Below are positions 3,902 to 31,448 of a DNA stretch of 44,219 nt, piece after piece. The position numbers and the translations under genes were made by a program. The notes below the pieces were generated by a model. It had not been told where the DNA came from and did no database searches. It saw only the letters and a program-made list of their open reading frames with translations. Within the stretch, counting starts at the first letter, position 1, and every line of letters starts with the position of its first letter. The DNA is from Gammaproteobacteria bacterium (GTDB taxonomy: Bacteria; Pseudomonadota; Gammaproteobacteria; SZUA-229), in assembly GCA_048550535.1 (NCBI GenBank), contig JBLYYN010000086.1:1-44219 (forward strand), given 5' to 3'.

Positions 3902-5626
3902 ATGTTTAATCATTTCTTGATCAGTGGTTACCATTTTCAAGATCATGAAAATGATCTGCTATTTAAATACCGTGTGCTCAATTCATTTATGGGGATTGCT
4001 ATAATATTTGGCTTCATGATTGGGACGCTGGGTGTTATAGGGATCATGCAGATAGGGATTATTCAGTCTTCTATCTATTATGCTTATGCGTTTTTTAATA
4101 TTTTCCTGATCTGGTATTTGCGCCGCTCGAGACAAAATTATATTACGGCAGCAAGACTACAGGTAACGGTGTCATTGATCACTTTTATTGGTGCACTGGT
4201 TTTTGTATCCAATGACGAATTTAGAATTGTCTGGTTTTATATTGCAGTTTACATTTCTTATATTCTGTTGGGGGTGAGGTCTGGAGTCATTGTTACCGGA
4301 ATTTCCATCTTAAGTATTATCTTATCTCATATTTTTCTGGATTTAAATATAACTGAAACAGCAATCTATACTGCAGTATTCGGTTTGCTGGTTACTAGCT
4401 TGCTGACGCACGCATATACTACACAGATGAGTATCTACGAAAGTAAGCTGAAAGAAAAAAATAGAAGTCTTGAAAAAAATATTTATGAACTGGATGATGC
4501 TTTATCCCAGGCCAATCAGGCCAGCACAATTAAAAGCCTGTTTTTGGCTAATATGAGTCATGAAATAAGAACGCCTATGAATGGTGTTTTAAGTATGGTT
4601 CAGGTTTTGCAAAATACCAATTTAACTGAACAACAAAAATATTATCTAAAGTCCCTGGATCGTTCTGGAAAAAGTTTGCTGGCCTTACTCGACGAATTGT
4701 TAGACCTTTCAAAAATAGAATCAGGCACTCTTGAATTAAATATTAAGTCATTCAGGTTGTGGCAATGGGTGGAAGATATTTTATTGTTTGTTGAGCCGAT
4801 GTTTGAAGAGGGGCCTGTGGCATTGACTGTCGATGTGGATAATGACATGCCTTATAGCCTGATGGGCGACGAGACCCGGCTCAGGCAGGTTGTACTAAAT
4901 TTAGTCAGTAATGCAGCTAAATATACCGAAATGGGTGAGGTAAGATTAAAAGTATATGGACAAAATATTGAGGCAGATGATTTCAGGCTGGTTATAGAAG
5001 TCGAAGATACAGGCGTCGGTATCTCACAGAAAAAGCTTGAAACTATATTTGAGCCATATCAGCAGATTTCCCCTGAAAGAACGGCTAATAAAGGAGTGGG
5101 TCTGGGACTATCAATCTGTAAACGTATCATTGATAAAATGGATGGTGAATTGATGGTACTGTCTGAACCCGGAATTGGCAGTAAATTTATTTTAAATGTG
5201 GCATTACCACTAGGTGACCTGTCTCAACACTATGAGCGGAGGATACAAGGCTCGGTGATTGAAAAGCCGCTGAGTATTCTGGTTGCGGATGATGATCGTA
5301 TTAGCAGGATGGCGGTGAAAGCACTGTTAGCCGCACAGAGGCATAATATTAAGGCTGTGGAGAATGGGAAACAGGCTATTGAGGCATTGCAGATTAGTGA
5401 TTATGATTTATTGATTATGGATATACATATGCCAATTATGGATGGTATTACAGCAACGAAACTCATAAAGCAACAGTCACTCACTGCTGCTCCTATCATA
5501 GCCATGACCGCCAGTGTTATGTCCGATGAACGTGAGATTTATTTTGCAGCAGGCATAGATGCCTTGATCGAAAAACCATTCAATTTTAATCTATTGTGTG
5601 AAATGATCAAACAAACCCTTCATTAA
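3902..5626 (+). CDS. Membrane-bound hybrid sensor histidine kinase (TM-HisKA-HATPase-REC)
   Basis: About six N-terminal TM helices; H-box FLANMSHEIRTPMNG; NLVSNAAKYT, DTGVGI, GVGLGLSI; receiver with DDD, MDIHMP, KP. Confidence 0.92.
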   Translation: MFNHFLISGYHFQDHENDLLFKYRVLNSFMGIAIIFGFMIGTLGVIGIMQIGIIQSSIYYAYAFFNIFLIWYLRRSRQNYITAARLQVTVSLITFIGALVFVSNDEFRIVWFYIAVYISYILLGVRSGVIVTGISILSIILSHIFLDLNITETAIYTAVFGLLVTSLLTHAYTTQMSIYESKLKEKNRSLEKNIYELDDALSQANQASTIKSLFLANMSHEIRTPMNGVLSMVQVLQNTNLTEQQKYYLKSLDRSGKSLLALLDELLDLSKIESGTLELNIKSFRLWQWVEDILLFVEPMFEEGPVALTVDVDNDMPYSLMGDETRLRQVVLNLVSNAAKYTEMGEVRLKVYGQNIEADDFRLVIEVEDTGVGISQKKLETIFEPYQQISPERTANKGVGLGLSICKRIIDKMDGELMVLSEPGIGSKFILNVALPLGDLSQHYERRIQGSVIEKPLSILVADDDRISRMAVKALLAAQRHNIKAVENGKQAIEALQISDYDLLIMDIHMPIMDGITATKLIKQQSLTAAPIIAMTASVMSDEREIYFAAGIDALIEKPFNFNLLCEMIKQTLH

Positions 5627-8772: not shown

Positions 8773-10500
8773 ATGGCTTACTCTAAAATCGTTAATGCAT
8801 GGTCAACACTTCAAGAGCACAATGATCCTCTTGTGTTGATTGCTGATGATGATCCATCTATACGTCTTCTGTTGCGCCATGCAATGGAAAAAGACGGTTA
8901 TAAAGTTGTTGAAGTGGTAAATGGTGCGGAGGCGGTTAAGGCCACTGAGAAATACCATCCCAGCCTGATTTTAATGGATGCGGTTATGCCGGTGCTGGAT
9001 GGTTTTAATGCCACTTCCACTCTGATGGAGATAGAAGAATACAGTGACATTCCCGTGTTGATGATTACTGCCCTGGATGATGACCGTTCCGTAGCCAAAG
9101 CATTTATTTCTGGAGCCCTGGATTATATTACCAAACCGGTAAACTGGTCGGTGCTGAAACACAGGGTCCGACGAATGTTACACGCTGCAGAAGCAGAACG
9201 TCAGATCCGTCACCTGGCCTACCTTGACTCGCTGACCGGCTTACCCAACCGATTGTTGTTTATGGACAGGCTGGATCAGGCTATTAGCCGCGCAATCCGG
9301 CAAAAAAGTATCTTTGCACTTTTATTCATCGATATTGATCATTTCAAGGTGATTAATGATTCCATGGGGCATCATGCTGGTGATCAGCTATTAACCACTG
9401 TTACCTCACGTCTGCAACAGAGTGTGCGTCAGTCGGATACCATTGCGCGTTTAGGCGGAGATGAATTTACCGTAATCGTAGAAAACATCAACCAGCCGGA
9501 AGATGTGCTGGTGGTGACCAAAACCATCCTGAGTACGCTCAATGAACCGGTTATGATTGATAATCGTGAGGTGTTTATCAGCGCCAGTATCGGGGTTTCC
9601 GTGTATCCCGACGATGGAGATGATCTGGGTAGCCTGTTAAAGAATGCAGAAACGGCTATGTACAAGGCCAAAGATCACGGTCGTAATAATTTACAGTTCT
9701 ATCGGTCTGAGATGAGTGATGCTGCAATGCGGCGCCTGGATATGGAAAACAGTCTGCGCAATGCCATCGAAAGGGATGAGTTACTGGTGTTCTATCAGCC
9801 AAAATTTAATCTATTAACAGGTAAATGTCTGGGTATGGAGGCACTGGTACGCTGGGACCACCCGGACAGGGGACTGGTGCTACCTGATGAGTTTATCCCC
9901 CTGGCCGAGGAAACCGGGATGATTTTACAGCTTGATGACTGGGTAATACGCACCGCCTGCAAGCAGTTGAGTGTATGGAAAAAAGCCGGTTATGAAGTCA
10001 ATAATCTGGCCATCAATGTTTCAGCACGACAGTTCAAAGAGCACCGACTGGTCGGGGTGATCAATAAAGTACTGGAAGAAACCGGTGTTCAGGGGCACGA
10101 GCTGGAAATCGAGTTGACTGAAAGCACTCTGGTTGACAATAATGAAAACGCCAGGGAAATGCTCAATGAGTTGCATGAGATGGGACTGCGTATCGCGCTG
10201 GATGATTTTGGAACCGGCTATGCATCTATGTCTTATCTTAAAGACTTTCCCATTGATACGGTTAAAATCGACCGCTCGTTTGTCTGGGGAATTCCCAATG
10301 ACAAGGAAGATATGGCTATAGTTAAAGCGATTGTAGGGCTTGCCGATGCTCTTGATTTATCCCTCATTGCAGAAGGGGTGGAAACAGAACAACAGATCGA
10401 ATTTTTGAATAGTATTGGCTGCAAGTCTGCCCAGGGTTATTACTGGAGCAAGCCAGTATCTGCTTTGATGTATGAGCAGGATATTTTGCAGGCGGTATAA
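8773..10500 (+). CDS. Response regulator with diguanylate cyclase and phosphodiesterase domains (REC-GGDEF-EAL)
   Basis: REC (DDD, D, KP); intact RLGGDEF with RxxD I-site (RQSD); EALVRW and DDFGTGY motifs. Confidence 0.95.
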   Translation: MAYSKIVNAWSTLQEHNDPLVLIADDDPSIRLLLRHAMEKDGYKVVEVVNGAEAVKATEKYHPSLILMDAVMPVLDGFNATSTLMEIEEYSDIPVLMITALDDDRSVAKAFISGALDYITKPVNWSVLKHRVRRMLHAAEAERQIRHLAYLDSLTGLPNRLLFMDRLDQAISRAIRQKSIFALLFIDIDHFKVINDSMGHHAGDQLLTTVTSRLQQSVRQSDTIARLGGDEFTVIVENINQPEDVLVVTKTILSTLNEPVMIDNREVFISASIGVSVYPDDGDDLGSLLKNAETAMYKAKDHGRNNLQFYRSEMSDAAMRRLDMENSLRNAIERDELLVFYQPKFNLLTGKCLGMEALVRWDHPDRGLVLPDEFIPLAEETGMILQLDDWVIRTACKQLSVWKKAGYEVNNLAINVSARQFKEHRLVGVINKVLEETGVQGHELEIELTESTLVDNNENAREMLNELHEMGLRIALDDFGTGYASMSYLKDFPIDTVKIDRSFVWGIPNDKEDMAIVKAIVGLADALDLSLIAEGVETEQQIEFLNSIGCKSAQGYYWSKPVSALMYEQDILQAV

Positions 10501-25846: not shown

Positions 25847-26230
25847 TCACGCAGAAGATAATGATTTCGAAACCCATCCATAGGCATCATTAACGGATTC
25901 AAAAATCTTACATTCTAATGGAGAGTCCTGCATTTGTTTACAATACTGATGAATCCAGTCTAAAACAGATTCAGAAGTTGCCACAATTGCAATTTTTAGA
26001 TAAGAGTTGCTTATCGCGCCGACATTATCAATAGTGGCAATTTTAAGAATATCAATTTCAGCGGCTTCGAATTTCACTACTTGCGTAAAATCATTTATCA
26101 CGTATCTAATATCGTCAAAGCGAGCATCGCCGTGAATGGCTAAATTTGAAGTTAGAATCTCTTCGCCGCTGATTTTATCGGAGAATTTTCTATAAAGACC
26201 GTTTTCTTCCCATGTATTTTGATGTGACAT
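25847..26230 (-). CDS. Hypothetical protein, SpoIIAA/STAS-like fold suspected
   Basis: 127 aa with AAGGA RBS; YVINDFT, KIAIVA, IFESVNDAYGWV pattern. Confidence 0.6.
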   Translation of the reverse strand: MSHQNTWEENGLYRKFSDKISGEEILTSNLAIHGDARFDDIRYVINDFTQVVKFEAAEIDILKIATIDNVGAISNSYLKIAIVATSESVLDWIHQYCKQMQDSPLECKIFESVNDAYGWVSKSLSSA

Positions 26231-26406
26231 CAGCCAATTCCTTTATTGGTACATACCCAGTCATATTAGATGAAATCACATAGGCAGGGAAGGGGATAGC
26301 GATAATTTTAAATTATTTTTAGTTGTCACCGCGTCATTAATGATTGAACCAGTAGGGACAGTTGAAAGCAGGCACACAAGTGTTTTAGTATAGGCAGGTC
26401 AAATTG

Positions 26407-26880
26407 TCAGGAAAGCCGTAATTGATCTAATGATGCAACTGCATTTTTACCGGTTATGTCCGGGTTAATCACCAGTTCAAGTACAGTGACTGCTGGAAGA
26501 TCAACTTGATATTCTTCCGTCTCACGGGTCGAACCATGAGGGTTGAAGTTCCACTGCTGTCGTACAATTTCCTGGTAGGATTTGCCGTCATCTGGAGACC
26601 AGCGCAAAACATACTCCTGTGTGCGTTCAATACTCGATTCTTCGAAGCTCAATCTGATCAATTTCAGCTTTTGCGGTTGCTTGAAGATAAGTCGAATGGT
26701 CTGTTCGCCTGGACCCGAGGCACGCCATGACGAGGCAATACTCGGTAGTAATGCAGACTCAATGGGATAAGCATCGTCTTCTGAGCTGATTTCAATATCC
26801 GCTAACTGTTCAATGTCTAACCAGTCACGTTCAGACGATTGTTGTTGCTGCTGAACCGGATCAATAATTTTCTTACGCAT
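26407..26880 (-). CDS. Galactose-binding/discoidin-like 'carbohydrate-binding' protein
   Basis: SSED.AYPIESAL, WRASGPGEQTIRL, RTQEYVLRWS, IVRQQWNF. Confidence 0.75.
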   Translation of the reverse strand: MRKKIIDPVQQQQQSSERDWLDIEQLADIEISSEDDAYPIESALLPSIASSWRASGPGEQTIRLIFKQPQKLKLIRLSFEESSIERTQEYVLRWSPDDGKSYQEIVRQQWNFNPHGSTRETEEYQVDLPAVTVLELVINPDITGKNAVASLDQLRLS

Positions 26881-27074
26881 TAAAATACCTTTTATATTGA
26901 AATTCGAGGAAGGTGACAGAGAGTGATAATTTATAAGTAACTCTGATTATACAGATTATTGGTATTTGCCTCAAAAAAGATTGGTCATCAGAATATTTAA
27001 CTTGCCAGATAATGTTCAGGTCCTGTGCGGGTGTTTGGTATGTACTGGAATTGCTTATGTTTTATAATCCCTGT

Positions 27075-27854
27075 TTAAAACCTTGAAATGCTTCGTTTAA
27101 TACAATTGAGATAACCTAGCTCGTTACAGGGTCGATTTGTAATATTATCACCAATGTCAGAGAATGATTTATTAATTAAAGATTCAATATCGGGTGGTTT
27201 TGGGTAGTCTCCATATATAACATCCTCGACGAATGTAGTCAGTAAATCACCCAGAAAATTACTATCATGTTGATGCGTGTTCGTATTTGAATTGGACATA
27301 ACGGTCGTTATATTACCGCTCCATACATTATGAAGGGTTTTTAGGTCATAAATTGAAGTAAACACGGATATCTTTCGCTCTGTTACATAGGTATTTTCTG
27401 TTTTAGAACTGTAATTATTCTTTTTAACGTTATCGGTTAATATTTTTGAAAATATGATGTATCTACTGTTTTTTTCAATATTCGACAGGGTGATCAGGAT
27501 TTCCTTGTTCTCGGTATTATTGTCTAAAATTAAATTTATAAAGTTTATAAGCTCGTCGTAACCTATATTGGCTATTATGTTTTGGTTGGATTCGAAGTTA
27601 ATGCCGCTATATATGGTCGATAAAGAATCTCTGGCGATGCTTGTATAATGTCTGAAGTTTTCTTTATCCCATGCTTCAGCTGCCGATATGAGGCCGCCAA
27701 AGACAATATGATCCTGCTTAATACTGCTAATGGTAAAAGATTCATCTTGTTTAATGTTCGTCATCGGCTCAGCACATGATGATAGTATTGTTATTATGTA
27801 GATGAAAGCAATATGCTTTAAACGTGACAGTTGATTAAATCGAAATGAGTTCAT
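27075..27854 (-). CDS. Hypothetical lipoprotein
   Basis: Lipobox ILSSC after a hydrophobic stretch; very AT-rich; IYDLKT..VWSG strand pattern. Confidence 0.65.
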   Translation of the reverse strand: MNSFRFNQLSRLKHIAFIYIITILSSCAEPMTNIKQDESFTISSIKQDHIVFGGLISAAEAWDKENFRHYTSIARDSLSTIYSGINFESNQNIIANIGYDELINFINLILDNNTENKEILITLSNIEKNSRYIIFSKILTDNVKKNNYSSKTENTYVTERKISVFTSIYDLKTLHNVWSGNITTVMSNSNTNTHQHDSNFLGDLLTTFVEDVIYGDYPKPPDIESLINKSFSDIGDNITNRPCNELGYLNCIKRSISRF

Positions 27855-27916
27855 ATGTTATTTATATACCGATATTTGTTAATAAACTCAATCGAGTCTG
27901 ATACTTATGACCCAGG

Positions 27917-28363
27917 TCACCCTGGAATATCCGTTTTGACGAGCTGTGCAAGCAGTGTGAGTGATTCTTGCCAACCGAGGTAACAGGCTTCTAATGGGAT
28001 GACTTCGGGGATTCCTTCCTGCACTATATCCAGTTCAGTTCCACAAGATACCTGCTTTATGGAAATAGTTGTTTGCATTTCCCCGGGCAGCTTGGGGTCG
28101 TCGAACTTGTCTGTGTGGAGAATGCGTTCATTTGGAAGCAGTTCAAGGTACTCTCCACCAAAAGAGTGGCCGAGTCCTGTGGAGAAGTTCGTGAACAACA
28201 TCTTGTCGCTGCCACCAACTCTTGCGTCAATATGGTGCACTTTGCCGGTGAATCCATGGGGTGGAAGCCATTTAGCCATGGCGTCGGCGTCGAGAAAGGC
28301 CCGATAGACTCTTTCGGGTGTTGCATGAAGAACACGATGTAAGTTGACGGTATTCGTGGACAC
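27917..28363 (-). CDS. SRPBCC/AHSA1 (START-like) family protein
   Basis: LHRVLHATPERVYRAFLD..AMAKWLPP, GGEYLEL, CYLGWQESL; GTG start with AAGG RBS. Confidence 0.9.
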   Translation of the reverse strand: MSTNTVNLHRVLHATPERVYRAFLDADAMAKWLPPHGFTGKVHHIDARVGGSDKMLFTNFSTGLGHSFGGEYLELLPNERILHTDKFDDPKLPGEMQTTISIKQVSCGTELDIVQEGIPEVIPLEACYLGWQESLTLLAQLVKTDIPG

Positions 28364-28417
28364 AATTTTTTACCTTTCTTTATGTGTTGAGGCCTGTAAT
28401 GGCTCCGACTTTATAAA

Positions 28418-29221
28418 TTAGAAAATAAAATCAAATCCTATATAATATCCATCAATATCTACATTTGGGCTTTCCAGGCTTCTATGTCCTATCCTAAATG
28501 CCAATTTTCTATATGTATACAGTGCTGATAAGTCTAAATCGTTAATGCTAACACCATCGGCATTAAAAACAGAAGGCCTTATTTCGAACCCAAGATGATG
28601 GCCGTTATGAAAAAGAATAGGTGCTGATAGAACCAGTCCATCAAATGAATCAACTCCATTCATCTGGCCATAGCCGATGCCCAGGTTTAATCCAATTTTG
28701 TTTCCAAATGACATTCTGTGAAAATACTGGACTTGATTATATTTAAGCTCATCATTTGTGATGTCATCGGTATACTTTGTAGCGCGAAATTCAAATCCTA
28801 TGGCTCCTTTTCCTATTTCCATTTTCAAATCAATAGCGTTTATTTGATCACTGACATGTTGTGTGTTTATATTGAATCGATAAAAAGGTATCAGAATTTC
28901 GCCGGGCTGTCTTTTGTTTATATCAGGATCATGGGGTTTACTGCTAACACGTTGATTGCTTGCTCTTCCTCCTTCAGATATGACTTCAGCTGTTTCATTG
29001 GCTATGGCTTCAACCAGGTCACCAAACAAGATCTCAAAAAAAGATTCTGAATCATTATATGGTTTACAGTGAATGCAGTTATTATAGCGCGCATTATTTT
29101 CTTTTTTGTTTTTAGCTATGTCTTCCTGAAAATCACCCAGTTCACCGGAGCTGGCCTGTAAAGAATACATCGCCAGGAAAAAACAAAATAGGGTGTTAAA
29201 AATATATATCTTTGATTTCAA
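28418..29221 (-). CDS. Hypothetical exported protein, possible C-terminal outer-membrane beta-barrel
   Basis: Signal peptide, amphipathic strands, ends GYYIGFDFIF; TTG start. Confidence 0.6.
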   Translation of the reverse strand: MKSKIYIFNTLFCFFLAMYSLQASSGELGDFQEDIAKNKKENNARYNNCIHCKPYNDSESFFEILFGDLVEAIANETAEVISEGGRASNQRVSSKPHDPDINKRQPGEILIPFYRFNINTQHVSDQINAIDLKMEIGKGAIGFEFRATKYTDDITNDELKYNQVQYFHRMSFGNKIGLNLGIGYGQMNGVDSFDGLVLSAPILFHNGHHLGFEIRPSVFNADGVSINDLDLSALYTYRKLAFRIGHRSLESPNVDIDGYYIGFDFIF

Positions 29222-29418
29222 CTGGATTTCCCTTAAAGTTAAACTATATCAGCGTAATCATGGACAAGCTATGATTTCCTGGTTTTTATCATGTTTATTG
29301 TGGTCTGTTTCTGATTATTTTTTTGTGTTATAAAATTTCAACCGAATCTGCTGGTTATTGTCTAACAAGGGCTCTGGCTCCTATGGCTTTTTACTAGTGA
29401 ACTGCATTGTTTGTGTGT

Positions 29419-29733
29419 CTATGTTATTTTAAATTCAGCATTATAATTCTCAGGCCATATCACTGAGAAGTCATCACCCTCCATATCTCTAAAAGCGGCA
29501 GATATATTTTTCAGGTCTTTTTCAGACAAAATGGATCTTACTAGCTCAAAAGCTTCATCAGGATTATTTGTATTTATAAATATATTTATTTTACCTGCTC
29601 CTATATCATGCCCATTAACTTGATGCTTGTCTCTTAAGGCAAGATTGAGCTCATTCTCGATCATGAGTATTCGATCAAAATAATCAGCAGATGCACCTGT
29701 CAGTGGAAACTGTATAACTAATTGGTAATTCAT
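29419..29733 (-). CDS. Hypothetical protein (104 aa)
   Basis: GAGGA RBS; YQLVIQFP...GHDIGAGKINIFI...WP resembles a conserved uncharacterised family. Confidence 0.7.
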   Translation of the reverse strand: MNYQLVIQFPLTGASADYFDRILMIENELNLALRDKHQVNGHDIGAGKINIFINTNNPDEAFELVRSILSEKDLKNISAAFRDMEGDDFSVIWPENYNAEFKIT

Positions 29734-29758
29734 TAATTCCTCTGCATATAATTGTTGC

Positions 29759-30079
29759 TCACTTTATCAGTTTTAATAATTTCACAATCTTCTTTTCATT
29801 AATCTCATCAAGCGAATATATTTTGATGTGTCGCATGTATTTTCCCTTGCCTTCAAACAAATTCATTTCGTCTTGGTTGAGCCCTTCAACTGAGAAACCA
29901 ATATTGACATGATCTTTGAATCCGACTAAATAATATTTGCATTCATACCATGGCACACCATTTTTGAATGATTCCTCTAAAGCAGGAAAAGTATTTAATA
30001 TTATCTCTCTTACTTTTTCACATATTTCTTTTTGTGGTGAAGGAAGGTTTTCAAGATATTTTTTTACTTTTTTATTCAT
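29759..30079 (-). CDS. DUF1801 (YdhG-like) protein
   Basis: KVREII..FP.LEESFKNGVPWY, HVNIGF, LFEGKGKYMRHIKI; start chosen at MNKKV. Confidence 0.8.
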   Translation of the reverse strand: MNKKVKKYLENLPSPQKEICEKVREIILNTFPALEESFKNGVPWYECKYYLVGFKDHVNIGFSVEGLNQDEMNLFEGKGKYMRHIKIYSLDEINEKKIVKLLKLIK

Positions 30080-30416
30080 ATCAATGCTATTTGATTTGTA
30101 CTTTCTCGTAACATAATAACAAGTTAATCGCTCAGGCACATATTTAATGCCGAGGTCAGGCCTAAATTGTAGCTAATATTAATGGCAATTTCGATCTGAT
30201 CTTATAGCATTACTCTTTTACTCTAAAGAAAAAAAGAAAGACCTGGCCCTGGTCCAGTCATTGATGATTGGAGAAGTATAAGTCTGAGACTTGCTTATAT
30301 GGAGGCATTAAAATCAGAAAATATATGATATTGCTCTATTTTAAGGAGAAGGTCGTTAATGTTAATGATTCTCAGTTGATTTTTGGTGTTTTTGATTAGT
30401 GTAGTGATCATCAGGC

Positions 30417-30972
30417 AGAGGTTTCGCCCTTCTGGGCGAGTTCATTTCTTTACTCGTATAAAGAAACCGAACCAAAGAAATACGCCCCAACTCACAAGCC
30501 CTTCATAAAAGGCGATGAAGGGTGCCCTCGTCACCACATGATGAATGTGCCTGCTGCGCAACTCCTCGCAAACTACGCTCGTCAAACATGCTCGCAGAAA
30601 GCCTGCACTTTAATCATGCGCTCCTCGGCTTGATCAATGGGGAATTCGAAAAAAAAATCGGAAATCCAAAGCCTGTGCTTTTGAACATCCCCTTTGGAGT
30701 AAGCAGAGGAGGGAGTGATTTATGAGGGAGCTTTCTGCGAGAATGTTTGAGCGAATTATGCTTTTTATAATTCGTGAGTTTCGCAGCAGCCTCATAAATT
30801 GCGACTGACGAAGGCACCACTATGCGCTTTTTGCATAGTGGCTTGCTACCTGGGGCGGCATTTTCTTGGTTATCTTCTTTGTTGCCTACAGGGACGTAGG
30901 TAAGGAGCGAGAGCAGGATGCGGTAGCTTTGCTGGAGACAAAGAAGTAACTCGCCAGCGAGGCGAAACCTCT
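30417..30972. repeat. Long structured inverted element made of two diverged copies (30417-30650 on +, 30681-30972 on -)
   Basis: Perfect 12-bp outer IR agaggtttcgcc/ggcgaaacctct; ordered shared blocks ggcgagtt, aaagaa..aacca, cgcccca, caagcc, ggtgcc.tcgtca, ctgctgcg.aactc, tcaaacat.ctcgcagaaagc, ctcctc.gctt, gggga. Confidence 0.8.
30882..30928 (-). mobile_element. ~47 bp hairpin micro-element inserted in the right arm of the long inverted element
   Basis: Minus strand agctaccgcatcctgctctcgctccttacctacgtccctgtaggcaa; absent from the left copy; homologous to 35599-35612 + 35714-35763. Confidence 0.7.
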
Positions 30973-31034
30973 CCCAAATAAGCAGAAAAATACAAAACCC
31001 CAAAAACTCACTTCACTACCAAAATAAAACCAAA

Positions 31035-31448
31035 TTAACCATCCTCCGGCCCAACCCAAAAATGAGGATTCCAGGCCACTTCCCACAAATGCCCATCCAG
31101 ATCCGCAAAATACCCCGAATACCCACCCCAGTCCGTCTCATGCGCTGGCTTAACTAAACAACCACCCGCAGTCACCGCCAGCTCAAGTAACTTGTCCACC
31201 TGCTCAGAGGACCCCACATTGTGGGCAAGACTAAACCCCCGAAAACCACTGCCCGCCGCCGAAACATCGGCATCAGCGGCCAGTGCACTCCAGCCATACA
31301 GCCCCAGCCAGCTGCCATTGAGTTCAAAAAAGGCCACTTCCTCACTGGCAAAATCTTTCAGCGGCAGTCCCAGTCCCTGTTGATAAAACTGTCTGGCCCG
31401 TGGCAGGTCTCGGACACCTAGGGTGATCATACTGATTCTGGGTTTCAT
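31035..31448 (-). CDS. VOC/glyoxalase family protein
   Basis: ISMITLGVRDL.RARQFY, LAHNV, WGGYSGYFADLDGHLWEVAWNP; GGAG RBS. Confidence 0.92.
   Translation of the reverse strand: MKPRISMITLGVRDLPRARQFYQQGLGLPLKDFASEEVAFFELNGSWLGLYGWSALAADADVSAAGSGFRGFSLAHNVGSSEQVDKLLELAVTAGGCLVKPAHETDWGGYSGYFADLDGHLWEVAWNPHFWVGPEDG

Follow-up and report, generated by a model that had tools for sequence, protein, structure and literature searches.

Two diverged structured sequences lie side by side in the window (the whole 44,219-nt stretch of DNA that was analysed), and the question they raise is whether such a pair works as RNA, as DNA or as an ending structure for the genes around it. We read the pair, at a probability of roughly 55%, as one divergent doublet of a gene-free repeat and likely a non-autonomous mobile element, the outward strands of which are predicted to fold as single-stranded DNA (ssDNA).

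The initial annotation had placed two diverged copies of one element at 30417-30650 and 30681-30972, and comparison of the two halves bears this out, with ordered blocks common to both, a mean column identity of 76% and stem interiors that differ. All of the stems it had named are present, namely the side hairpins, the long stems (approximately 30537-30618 in the left half and 30715-30801 in the right half), the CCCC/GGGG closures and both outer hairpins. Its boundaries are refined here to 30420-30644 for the left unit (unit A) and 30687-30969 for the right unit (unit B). The tail-to-tail arrangement it had proposed is refuted, as the folding strands run outward from the spacer and the units thus form a divergent pair; the strand it had folded was the wrong one, the true folding strand being the opposite, minus for unit A and plus for unit B. 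That first reading also lacked two features, the pseudoknot with its mirror tail and, nested in unit B, an insert of about 47 nt.

Unit A is of subtype A with a K-type core and scores 187 bits with our covariance model R1, unit A itself being among the sequences from which R1 was built. On its minus strand, the K-type core spans 30553-30597 with a conserved TGTYTGA ... GAGTT internal loop, followed by a side hairpin inside the basal stem (30499-30522), a pseudoknot with triple helix predicted from sequence and fold (30440-30484) and a terminal 3′ hairpin (30423-30440) that is terminator-like when read on the plus strand. Within the predicted knot, the long stem pairs 30440-30452 with 30459-30472, the third strand is 30474-30480 and the short stem pairs 30455-30458 with 30481-30484, the short stem showing two-sided change relative to sister copies. 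A loosely conserved A-rich 3′ flank (30385-30419, minus strand), delimited by position counts, is probably part of the element, its outer limit being approximate. The central spacer (30645-30686, 42 nt, no strand) belongs to a short class common to doublets elsewhere in the genome. Unit B is of subtype B with a K-type core and scores 212 bits with R1; it stands outside the R1 training set, close paralogues of it standing inside. On the plus strand it comprises the K-type core with its capping hairpin (30735-30786), the side hairpin (30818-30840), the predicted pseudoknot with triple helix (30856-30950) and a terminal 3′ hairpin (30951-30965), terminator-like on the minus strand and located 69 nt past the stop of a glyoxalase-family gene (31035-31448). 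The unit B knot is formed by the short-stem 5′ strand and pyrimidine third strand (30856-30868) and a long stem pairing 30869-30882 with 30938-30950, and it holds the nested small repeat (30886-30932) with TTGC at either side. A 129-aa ORF across unit B (30614-31003) was rejected as a gene, having no Pfam match and clustering only with shadow frames of other copies.

That conservation acts on the fold of each half separately, as had been proposed, is supported by covariation over 34 distinct units. In this alignment 86.2% of the cells pair, compared with 70.9% in shuffles, none of 500 shuffles reaching the observed value, and both sides have changed in 51 of 69 pairs. A slid-partner control paired 41-46% of cells, a generous control since the scored structure was hand-drawn from one member. 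The outward strand was identified as the folding strand because Rfam matches, energy and wobble asymmetry all point to it: matches of sister units to RF01731 fall on the outward strands, opposite to those folded initially; the consensus energy is -33.7 on the outward strand versus -10.8 on the other; and pairs picked by folding that other strand deviate 13 times as A-C versus once as G-T. A count of 82 C-A versus 0 G-T was discarded, as it was biased by the search pattern.

The conserved outer end of each unit is predicted to form a three-stranded knot. Its order on the folding strand is a short stem, a pyrimidine loop, the 5′ arm of the long stem, the partner of the short stem and a purine arm, which gives a predicted H-type pseudoknot with the loop parallel to the purine arm. 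Across 104 heads with stems of at least 6 pairs, 375 of 416 positions follow a mirror rule between loop and stem arm, compared with at most 268 in shuffles, and G faces G in the mirror in 72 of 78 cases versus 4, 9 and 16 when the register was slid; such a mirror is what a parallel triple helix requires. When arm and tail of 173 distinct heads are compared on the non-folding strand, an A of the arm is matched by A in the tail in 388 of 412 cases, a G by G in 86 of 99 and a T by C in 13 of 20. In a second set of 42 parses T lies opposite T-A in 106 of 112 and C opposite C-G in 37 of 41, counts that retain five wrong-register rows which probably cause most of the exceptions. Of 138 heads, 82 have a short pseudoknot stem of at least 4 bp, compared with no more than 51 in shuffles, and the stem is made of 54 different words. 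Where the long stem carries inverted pairs, the third strand has G, as a G.T-A triad would, in 11 of 11 cases at positions 3-4 and in 13 of 20 over positions 3-7, these cases descending from few events. Among metagenome sequences, A-T inversions have a third-strand G at 12 of 13 loci, which represent six distinct sequences, five of them with G. Of 401 genomes of the class searched with a pattern specific for the inversion, this genome alone gave matches (six copies). G.T-A is a known DNA triad and is reportedly preferred in DNA over RNA; in the predicted knot, however, a single base bridges five pairs, and such a span suits an RNA-like groove.

The loops bear on whether the folded strand is DNA or RNA. 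Of 638 triloops on the folding strand, 113 are c(GNA)g and 13 are the reverse complement c(TNC)g, and the corresponding counts in a second set are 15 and 0 of 73. Among 10119 triloops of the genome background the two forms are about equally frequent (95 and 97, about 1% each), so that c(GNA)g is enriched about 20-fold on the folding strand. GNA triloops are reported to be the only ones giving an extra-stable DNA mini-hairpin, a related hairpin in RNA form being described as much weaker (PMC13037366). GNRA tetraloops, too, are more frequent on the folding strand (69 versus 22), a point against DNA.

The competing explanation that survives best, which we nevertheless consider rather unlikely, is that each unit is a structured ncRNA transcribed outward from the spacer, its 3′ end protected by the knot, and spread via a host reverse transcriptase. 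The topology of the knot, which is that of RNA triple-helix pseudoknots and is telomerase-like, speaks for such an RNA, as do the A-rich 3′ flank, the filing of the sister class as RNA in Rfam and the RNA folding energies, which are better on the folding strand than on the opposite one (-83 versus -65 and -108 versus -82 kcal/mol; DNA folding energies hardly differ between the strands). The strong covariation with G-U wobbles was counted in its favour as well, but wobble pairs are compatible with RNA and DNA equally. On the other side, a spacer of 40-50 nt leaves little room for two promoters and a promoter scan of the window spacer found none; among the 549 tetraloops of the folding strand UNCG is rare (8 cases), c(GNA)g being the enriched triloop; and no reverse transcriptase was found among the 107 neighbouring ORFs scanned. 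We place the DNA reading ahead of the RNA reading at about two to one. The initial annotation had offered a structured ncRNA or a ssDNA mobile-element end, and of these the ssDNA option fits better, short of proof, and the ncRNA option less well.

The genome-wide search for homologues suggested in the initial annotation was run. In the genome of the window (G000; 3.6 Mb, 87.5% complete) the head pattern hit 49 times, with a single false hit, which leaves about 48 copies; by body subtype the hits divide into 17 A, 16 B, 8 C, 4 D and 4 untyped, the window pair being one A unit and one B unit. In all 15 doublets of this genome one end is of type B and the other of type A or C, and the spacers belong to two classes, each common to several loci. 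Similarly, all nine doublets fetched from genome G429 join two subtypes, both with AYGGAY cores. Because unlike subtypes are paired and spacers are common to several loci, the doublet looks like the unit of spread. The element is present in 23 of 40 genomes of the family and in many Proteobacteria, which agrees with the initial annotation, where similar intergenic repeats in other proteobacteria had been mentioned. Model R1, built on K units, matches 30 of 150 other genomes of the class, and the K core was found in 9 of 15 units parsed from 20 stretches fetched at R1 matches. Six loci with the element were found on viral contigs, mostly near contig ends; a search of a phage collection with the element gave no match, and eight records of a plasmid collection matched, all to the nested insert only.

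The nested repeat of about 47 nt carries two GGA-loop hairpins in unit B and has 18 pattern matches in G000, occurring also inside other, unrelated repeat families after an AA pair. Besides the window copy (30886-30932), it was seen on contigs C8, C14, C18, C19, C36, C37, C83, C135, C181, C201, C248, C283, C297, C336 and C337. From its sequence it resembles a small site-specific mobile element.

Orthologous loci lacking the element, another check suggested at the outset, were found in a comparison with the congener G001. There, 27 heads were examined, of which six had no alignable flank; among the other 21, eight occupy the same site in G000, two correspond to remnants, nine (eight sites) are absent from G000 and two are undecided. 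Since both flanks could be aligned at just two of the eight absent sites, loss is as possible as gain. The interior is flipped in two of three readable orthologous doublets, and one doublet of genome G013 is reduced to its two heads. For comparison with a MITE of a DDE insertion sequence, which has terminal inverted repeats and a target-site duplication, the ends of the doublet are inverted, and the congeners are too diverged for junctions or target duplications to be read; in Pseudomonas and genus g18 the relatives are likewise too distant for clean junctions. Three element sites of G001 hold a different palindromic repeat family in G000 (G000 C236, C135 near 5100-5270 and C148; G001 L219, L025, L228 and L230), which suggests insertion hot spots common to both repeat families. 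Half REP-like hairpins stand at a fixed distance outside many heads in L253-L272 (G429 and G438), matching the REP association reported for Pseudomonas. At four loci, L126, L145 and L151 (300-nt flank loci) and L272 (family f1), an IS-like end with repeated boxes directly follows the pseudoknot tail. This may mark an IS family that targets the element, presumably IS481-like.

The initial annotation had also suggested asking whether some paired copies enclose an ORF, and wide doublets of 1.1-2.8 kb in other families do so. In a sample hand-picked by spacing, the enclosed DNA lies 5-26 GC points below its neighbourhood in all eight doublets measured, and 14 of 16 cargo proteins have no Pfam family. 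One such cargo gene (L290:605-1630 in G117) encodes a T5orf172/MUG113-domain protein of 342 aa at 36% GC between two divergent units in a neighbourhood of 62% GC. It was considered as the mobilising enzyme and set aside, being only one of 16 cargo proteins.

The search for an enzyme near the element covered 107 of 114 listed neighbouring ORFs, duplicates and shadow frames having been dropped, and found no nuclease or transposase family among them. When 2109 nearby ORFs were clustered, nothing but shadow frames and housekeeping families emerged, and no autonomous copy. In G000, at 87.5% completeness, DUF559 was not found, and none of the four Y1_Tnp genes is flanked by the element. These four RAYT-like Y1 transposase genes (C155, C338, C113 and C255) have short GACCC-containing flanking repeats that are unrelated to the element.

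The genomic context also bears on the neighbouring genes. The element had been described as bounding an accessory gene array, and it does lie next to low-GC accessory genes (25847-30139; 37% versus 48% GC), a stretch of seven co-oriented genes that includes DUF1801, AHSA1, F5/8-type and unknown proteins. The claim holds for adjacency and for nothing beyond it: the genes lie outside the doublet, 31 of the 40 heads with a callable neighbour genome-wide face an ordinary gene end, and no sign was found that the doublet brought the genes at 25847-30139. In G001 the order of these genes is shuffled, three were not seen and contigs break at this site; no cassette repeat common to the genes was evident by eye.

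The frequent position of heads at gene ends, together with the terminator-like character of both window heads on the non-folding strand, could favour the explanation that hosts have selected the repeats as terminators working in both directions, or as structures at mRNA ends, on the strand first folded. We regard this as improbable, given that the wobble asymmetry, the pseudoknot and the Rfam matches all lie on the other strand, that about 30 nt suffices for a terminator and the units are about 230 nt, and that many sites are lineage-specific. Under the preferred reading of a mobile doublet, terminator-like hairpins after genes might represent a secondary benefit or reflect a preference in target.

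The relatives of the window units further define what kind of repeat this is. TwoAYGGAY (RF01731; Weinberg et al. 2010, PMC2864571), an orphan since 2010, is most often interpreted as a sponge for CsrA. An extended form with extra hairpins, a long basal stem as well as a 3′ pseudoknot, in variable copy number and with 68.4% divergent doublets, is described in a 2026 preprint, which proposes that it acts as a Csr sponge and spreads in the manner of a mobile element (Li et al., bioRxiv 10.64898/2026.09.22.753630). An Rfam search of the window gave nothing at gathering score and only chance-level miRNA and snoRNA matches at E up to 5, with no TwoAYGGAY among them. Two sister units in this genome do reach the RF01731 gathering score (43.6 and 43.1 bits); they are of subtype C and have heads and spacers common to the window class. 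Across 20 loci of this genome and its family RF01731 gave 11 matches, three of them exceeding the gathering score, and across another 20 loci, drawn from other taxa, it gave five at that score. The idea that nothing similar had been described was therefore wrong, given these sister copies and the frame and doublets of Li et al.

Judged against the text description of Li et al. rather than their model, the window units have the frame of the extended TwoAYGGAY, with an elongated basal stem, a side hairpin, a 3′ pseudoknot and a terminal 3′ hairpin, and also share with it the multicopy intergenic spread and the divergent doublets (15 among about 48 heads here). A 5-6-nt repeat word occurs once in the window spacer, a count with no null comparison. 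A single unit on G000 contig C263 (near 9060-9172) has a tandem hexamer array on its 5′ side, on the folding strand, that runs to the contig end and resembles the 5′ repeats described in the preprint. The difference lies in the core: where TwoAYGGAY has two AYGGAY hairpins, the window units have the K core, in which a variable hairpin is enclosed by two invariant strands, TGTYTGA and GAGTT; unit A has no AYGGAY hairpin and unit B has such hairpins only within the nested insert of its pseudoknot. The window class is a sister class of the extended TwoAYGGAY and, by its defining loops, no member of RF01731. The main text of the preprint mentions no triplex, Hoogsteen pairing, triloop, single-stranded form or cargo, and its variant figures S25-S29 may include such forms. 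The K core and the triplex were not found in the literature searched (12-mers of the element, its description and TwoAYGGAY papers).

The least probable explanation is that the family is a CsrA/RsmA sponge, as proposed for TwoAYGGAY, with the window copies as a degenerate branch, for although sister copies carry CsrA-type GGA loops (PMC4333381), CsrA is encoded in this genome and the insert of unit B contributes two GGA loops, unit A has no GGA-loop hairpin and unit B has them only in that insert, the K core, to which a rough classifier assigns 26 of 45 heads, forms the major class of this genome and is not decayed, given its invariant columns and covariation, and K units occur also in Methylophilaceae and Thiobacillus, where CsrA was matched in 0 of 10 assemblies (assembly completeness not stated). 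CsrA had no match in G429 and G440 either, an absence that carries little weight since the sister G438 has one.

By analogy, we infer that the doublet may work like a REPIN-type non-autonomous doublet. Starting from what the data themselves give (multiple copies, covariation, strand, the mirror rule, unlike-subtype pairs, common spacers and site gain or loss between congeners), movement might proceed as follows. When the duplex opens, each outward strand would fold, and both outer ends would be marked by the constant triple-helix knot with its hairpin, on which an unlinked enzyme that processes ssDNA would act in trans; the core would be an exchangeable passenger. With unlike subtypes in each pair, a perfect palindrome of 550 bp would be avoided; alternatively, such pairing could reflect the loss of perfect palindromes. 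The inverted ends would allow the interior to flip and the spacer could take up foreign genes, and the opposite strand may be tolerated as a source of terminator-like hairpins after genes. More tentatively, it is possible that TwoAYGGAY, rather than being an RNA family, is a core variant of pan-proteobacterial mobile ssDNA cassettes, with two unlike ends that fold into DNA triple-helix pseudoknots with G.T-A triads, an enzyme yet to be found, flipping and gene capture. That a large sister class has this frame yet lacks AYGGAY loops shows that the selected common part is the frame and the knotted end. For an intrastrand triple helix, the knotted end supplies evolutionary support base by base. 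Should the doublet be a mobile DNA cassette, a considerable part of the gammaproteobacterial families (30 of the 150 sampled matched) would harbour an undiscovered transposition enzyme and a gene-capture route.

Several known systems offer comparisons. Telomerase RNA has an H-type pseudoknot in which pyrimidine loop 1 lies in the major groove of stem 2; the likeness is a structural analogy only, no template or reverse transcriptase link having been found. BIMEs, like the element described here, are made of subtypes. REPINs and BIMEs are described as moved in trans by RAYT Y1 transposases (PMC3337134), and they share with the present element gene-free inverted intergenic doublets, movement thought to depend on an unlinked enzyme and co-option as terminators. 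In contrast to their palindromes of 20-40 nt, the units here are about ten times longer (225-283 nt) and branched, and no RAYT gene is flanked by them. A further likeness, in the knot itself, is to the BoxC/PIT/TM_ECO intrastrand triplex repeats (Holder et al. 2015, PMC4666352), which have three same-strand tracts in mirror relation; the window class follows the intrastrand triplex rules for three tracts, and its folding strand has the class IV order of Holder et al. Inverted pairs of TM_ECO are described in that study as always joining a type A to a type B and as tied to local genome instability, and unlike-type pairing is found here too. TM_ECO, however, is short and G/C-rich, whereas in the element described here A/T-rich tracts are predicted to be locked by a second stem into a pseudoknot within a 230-nt multi-stem unit.
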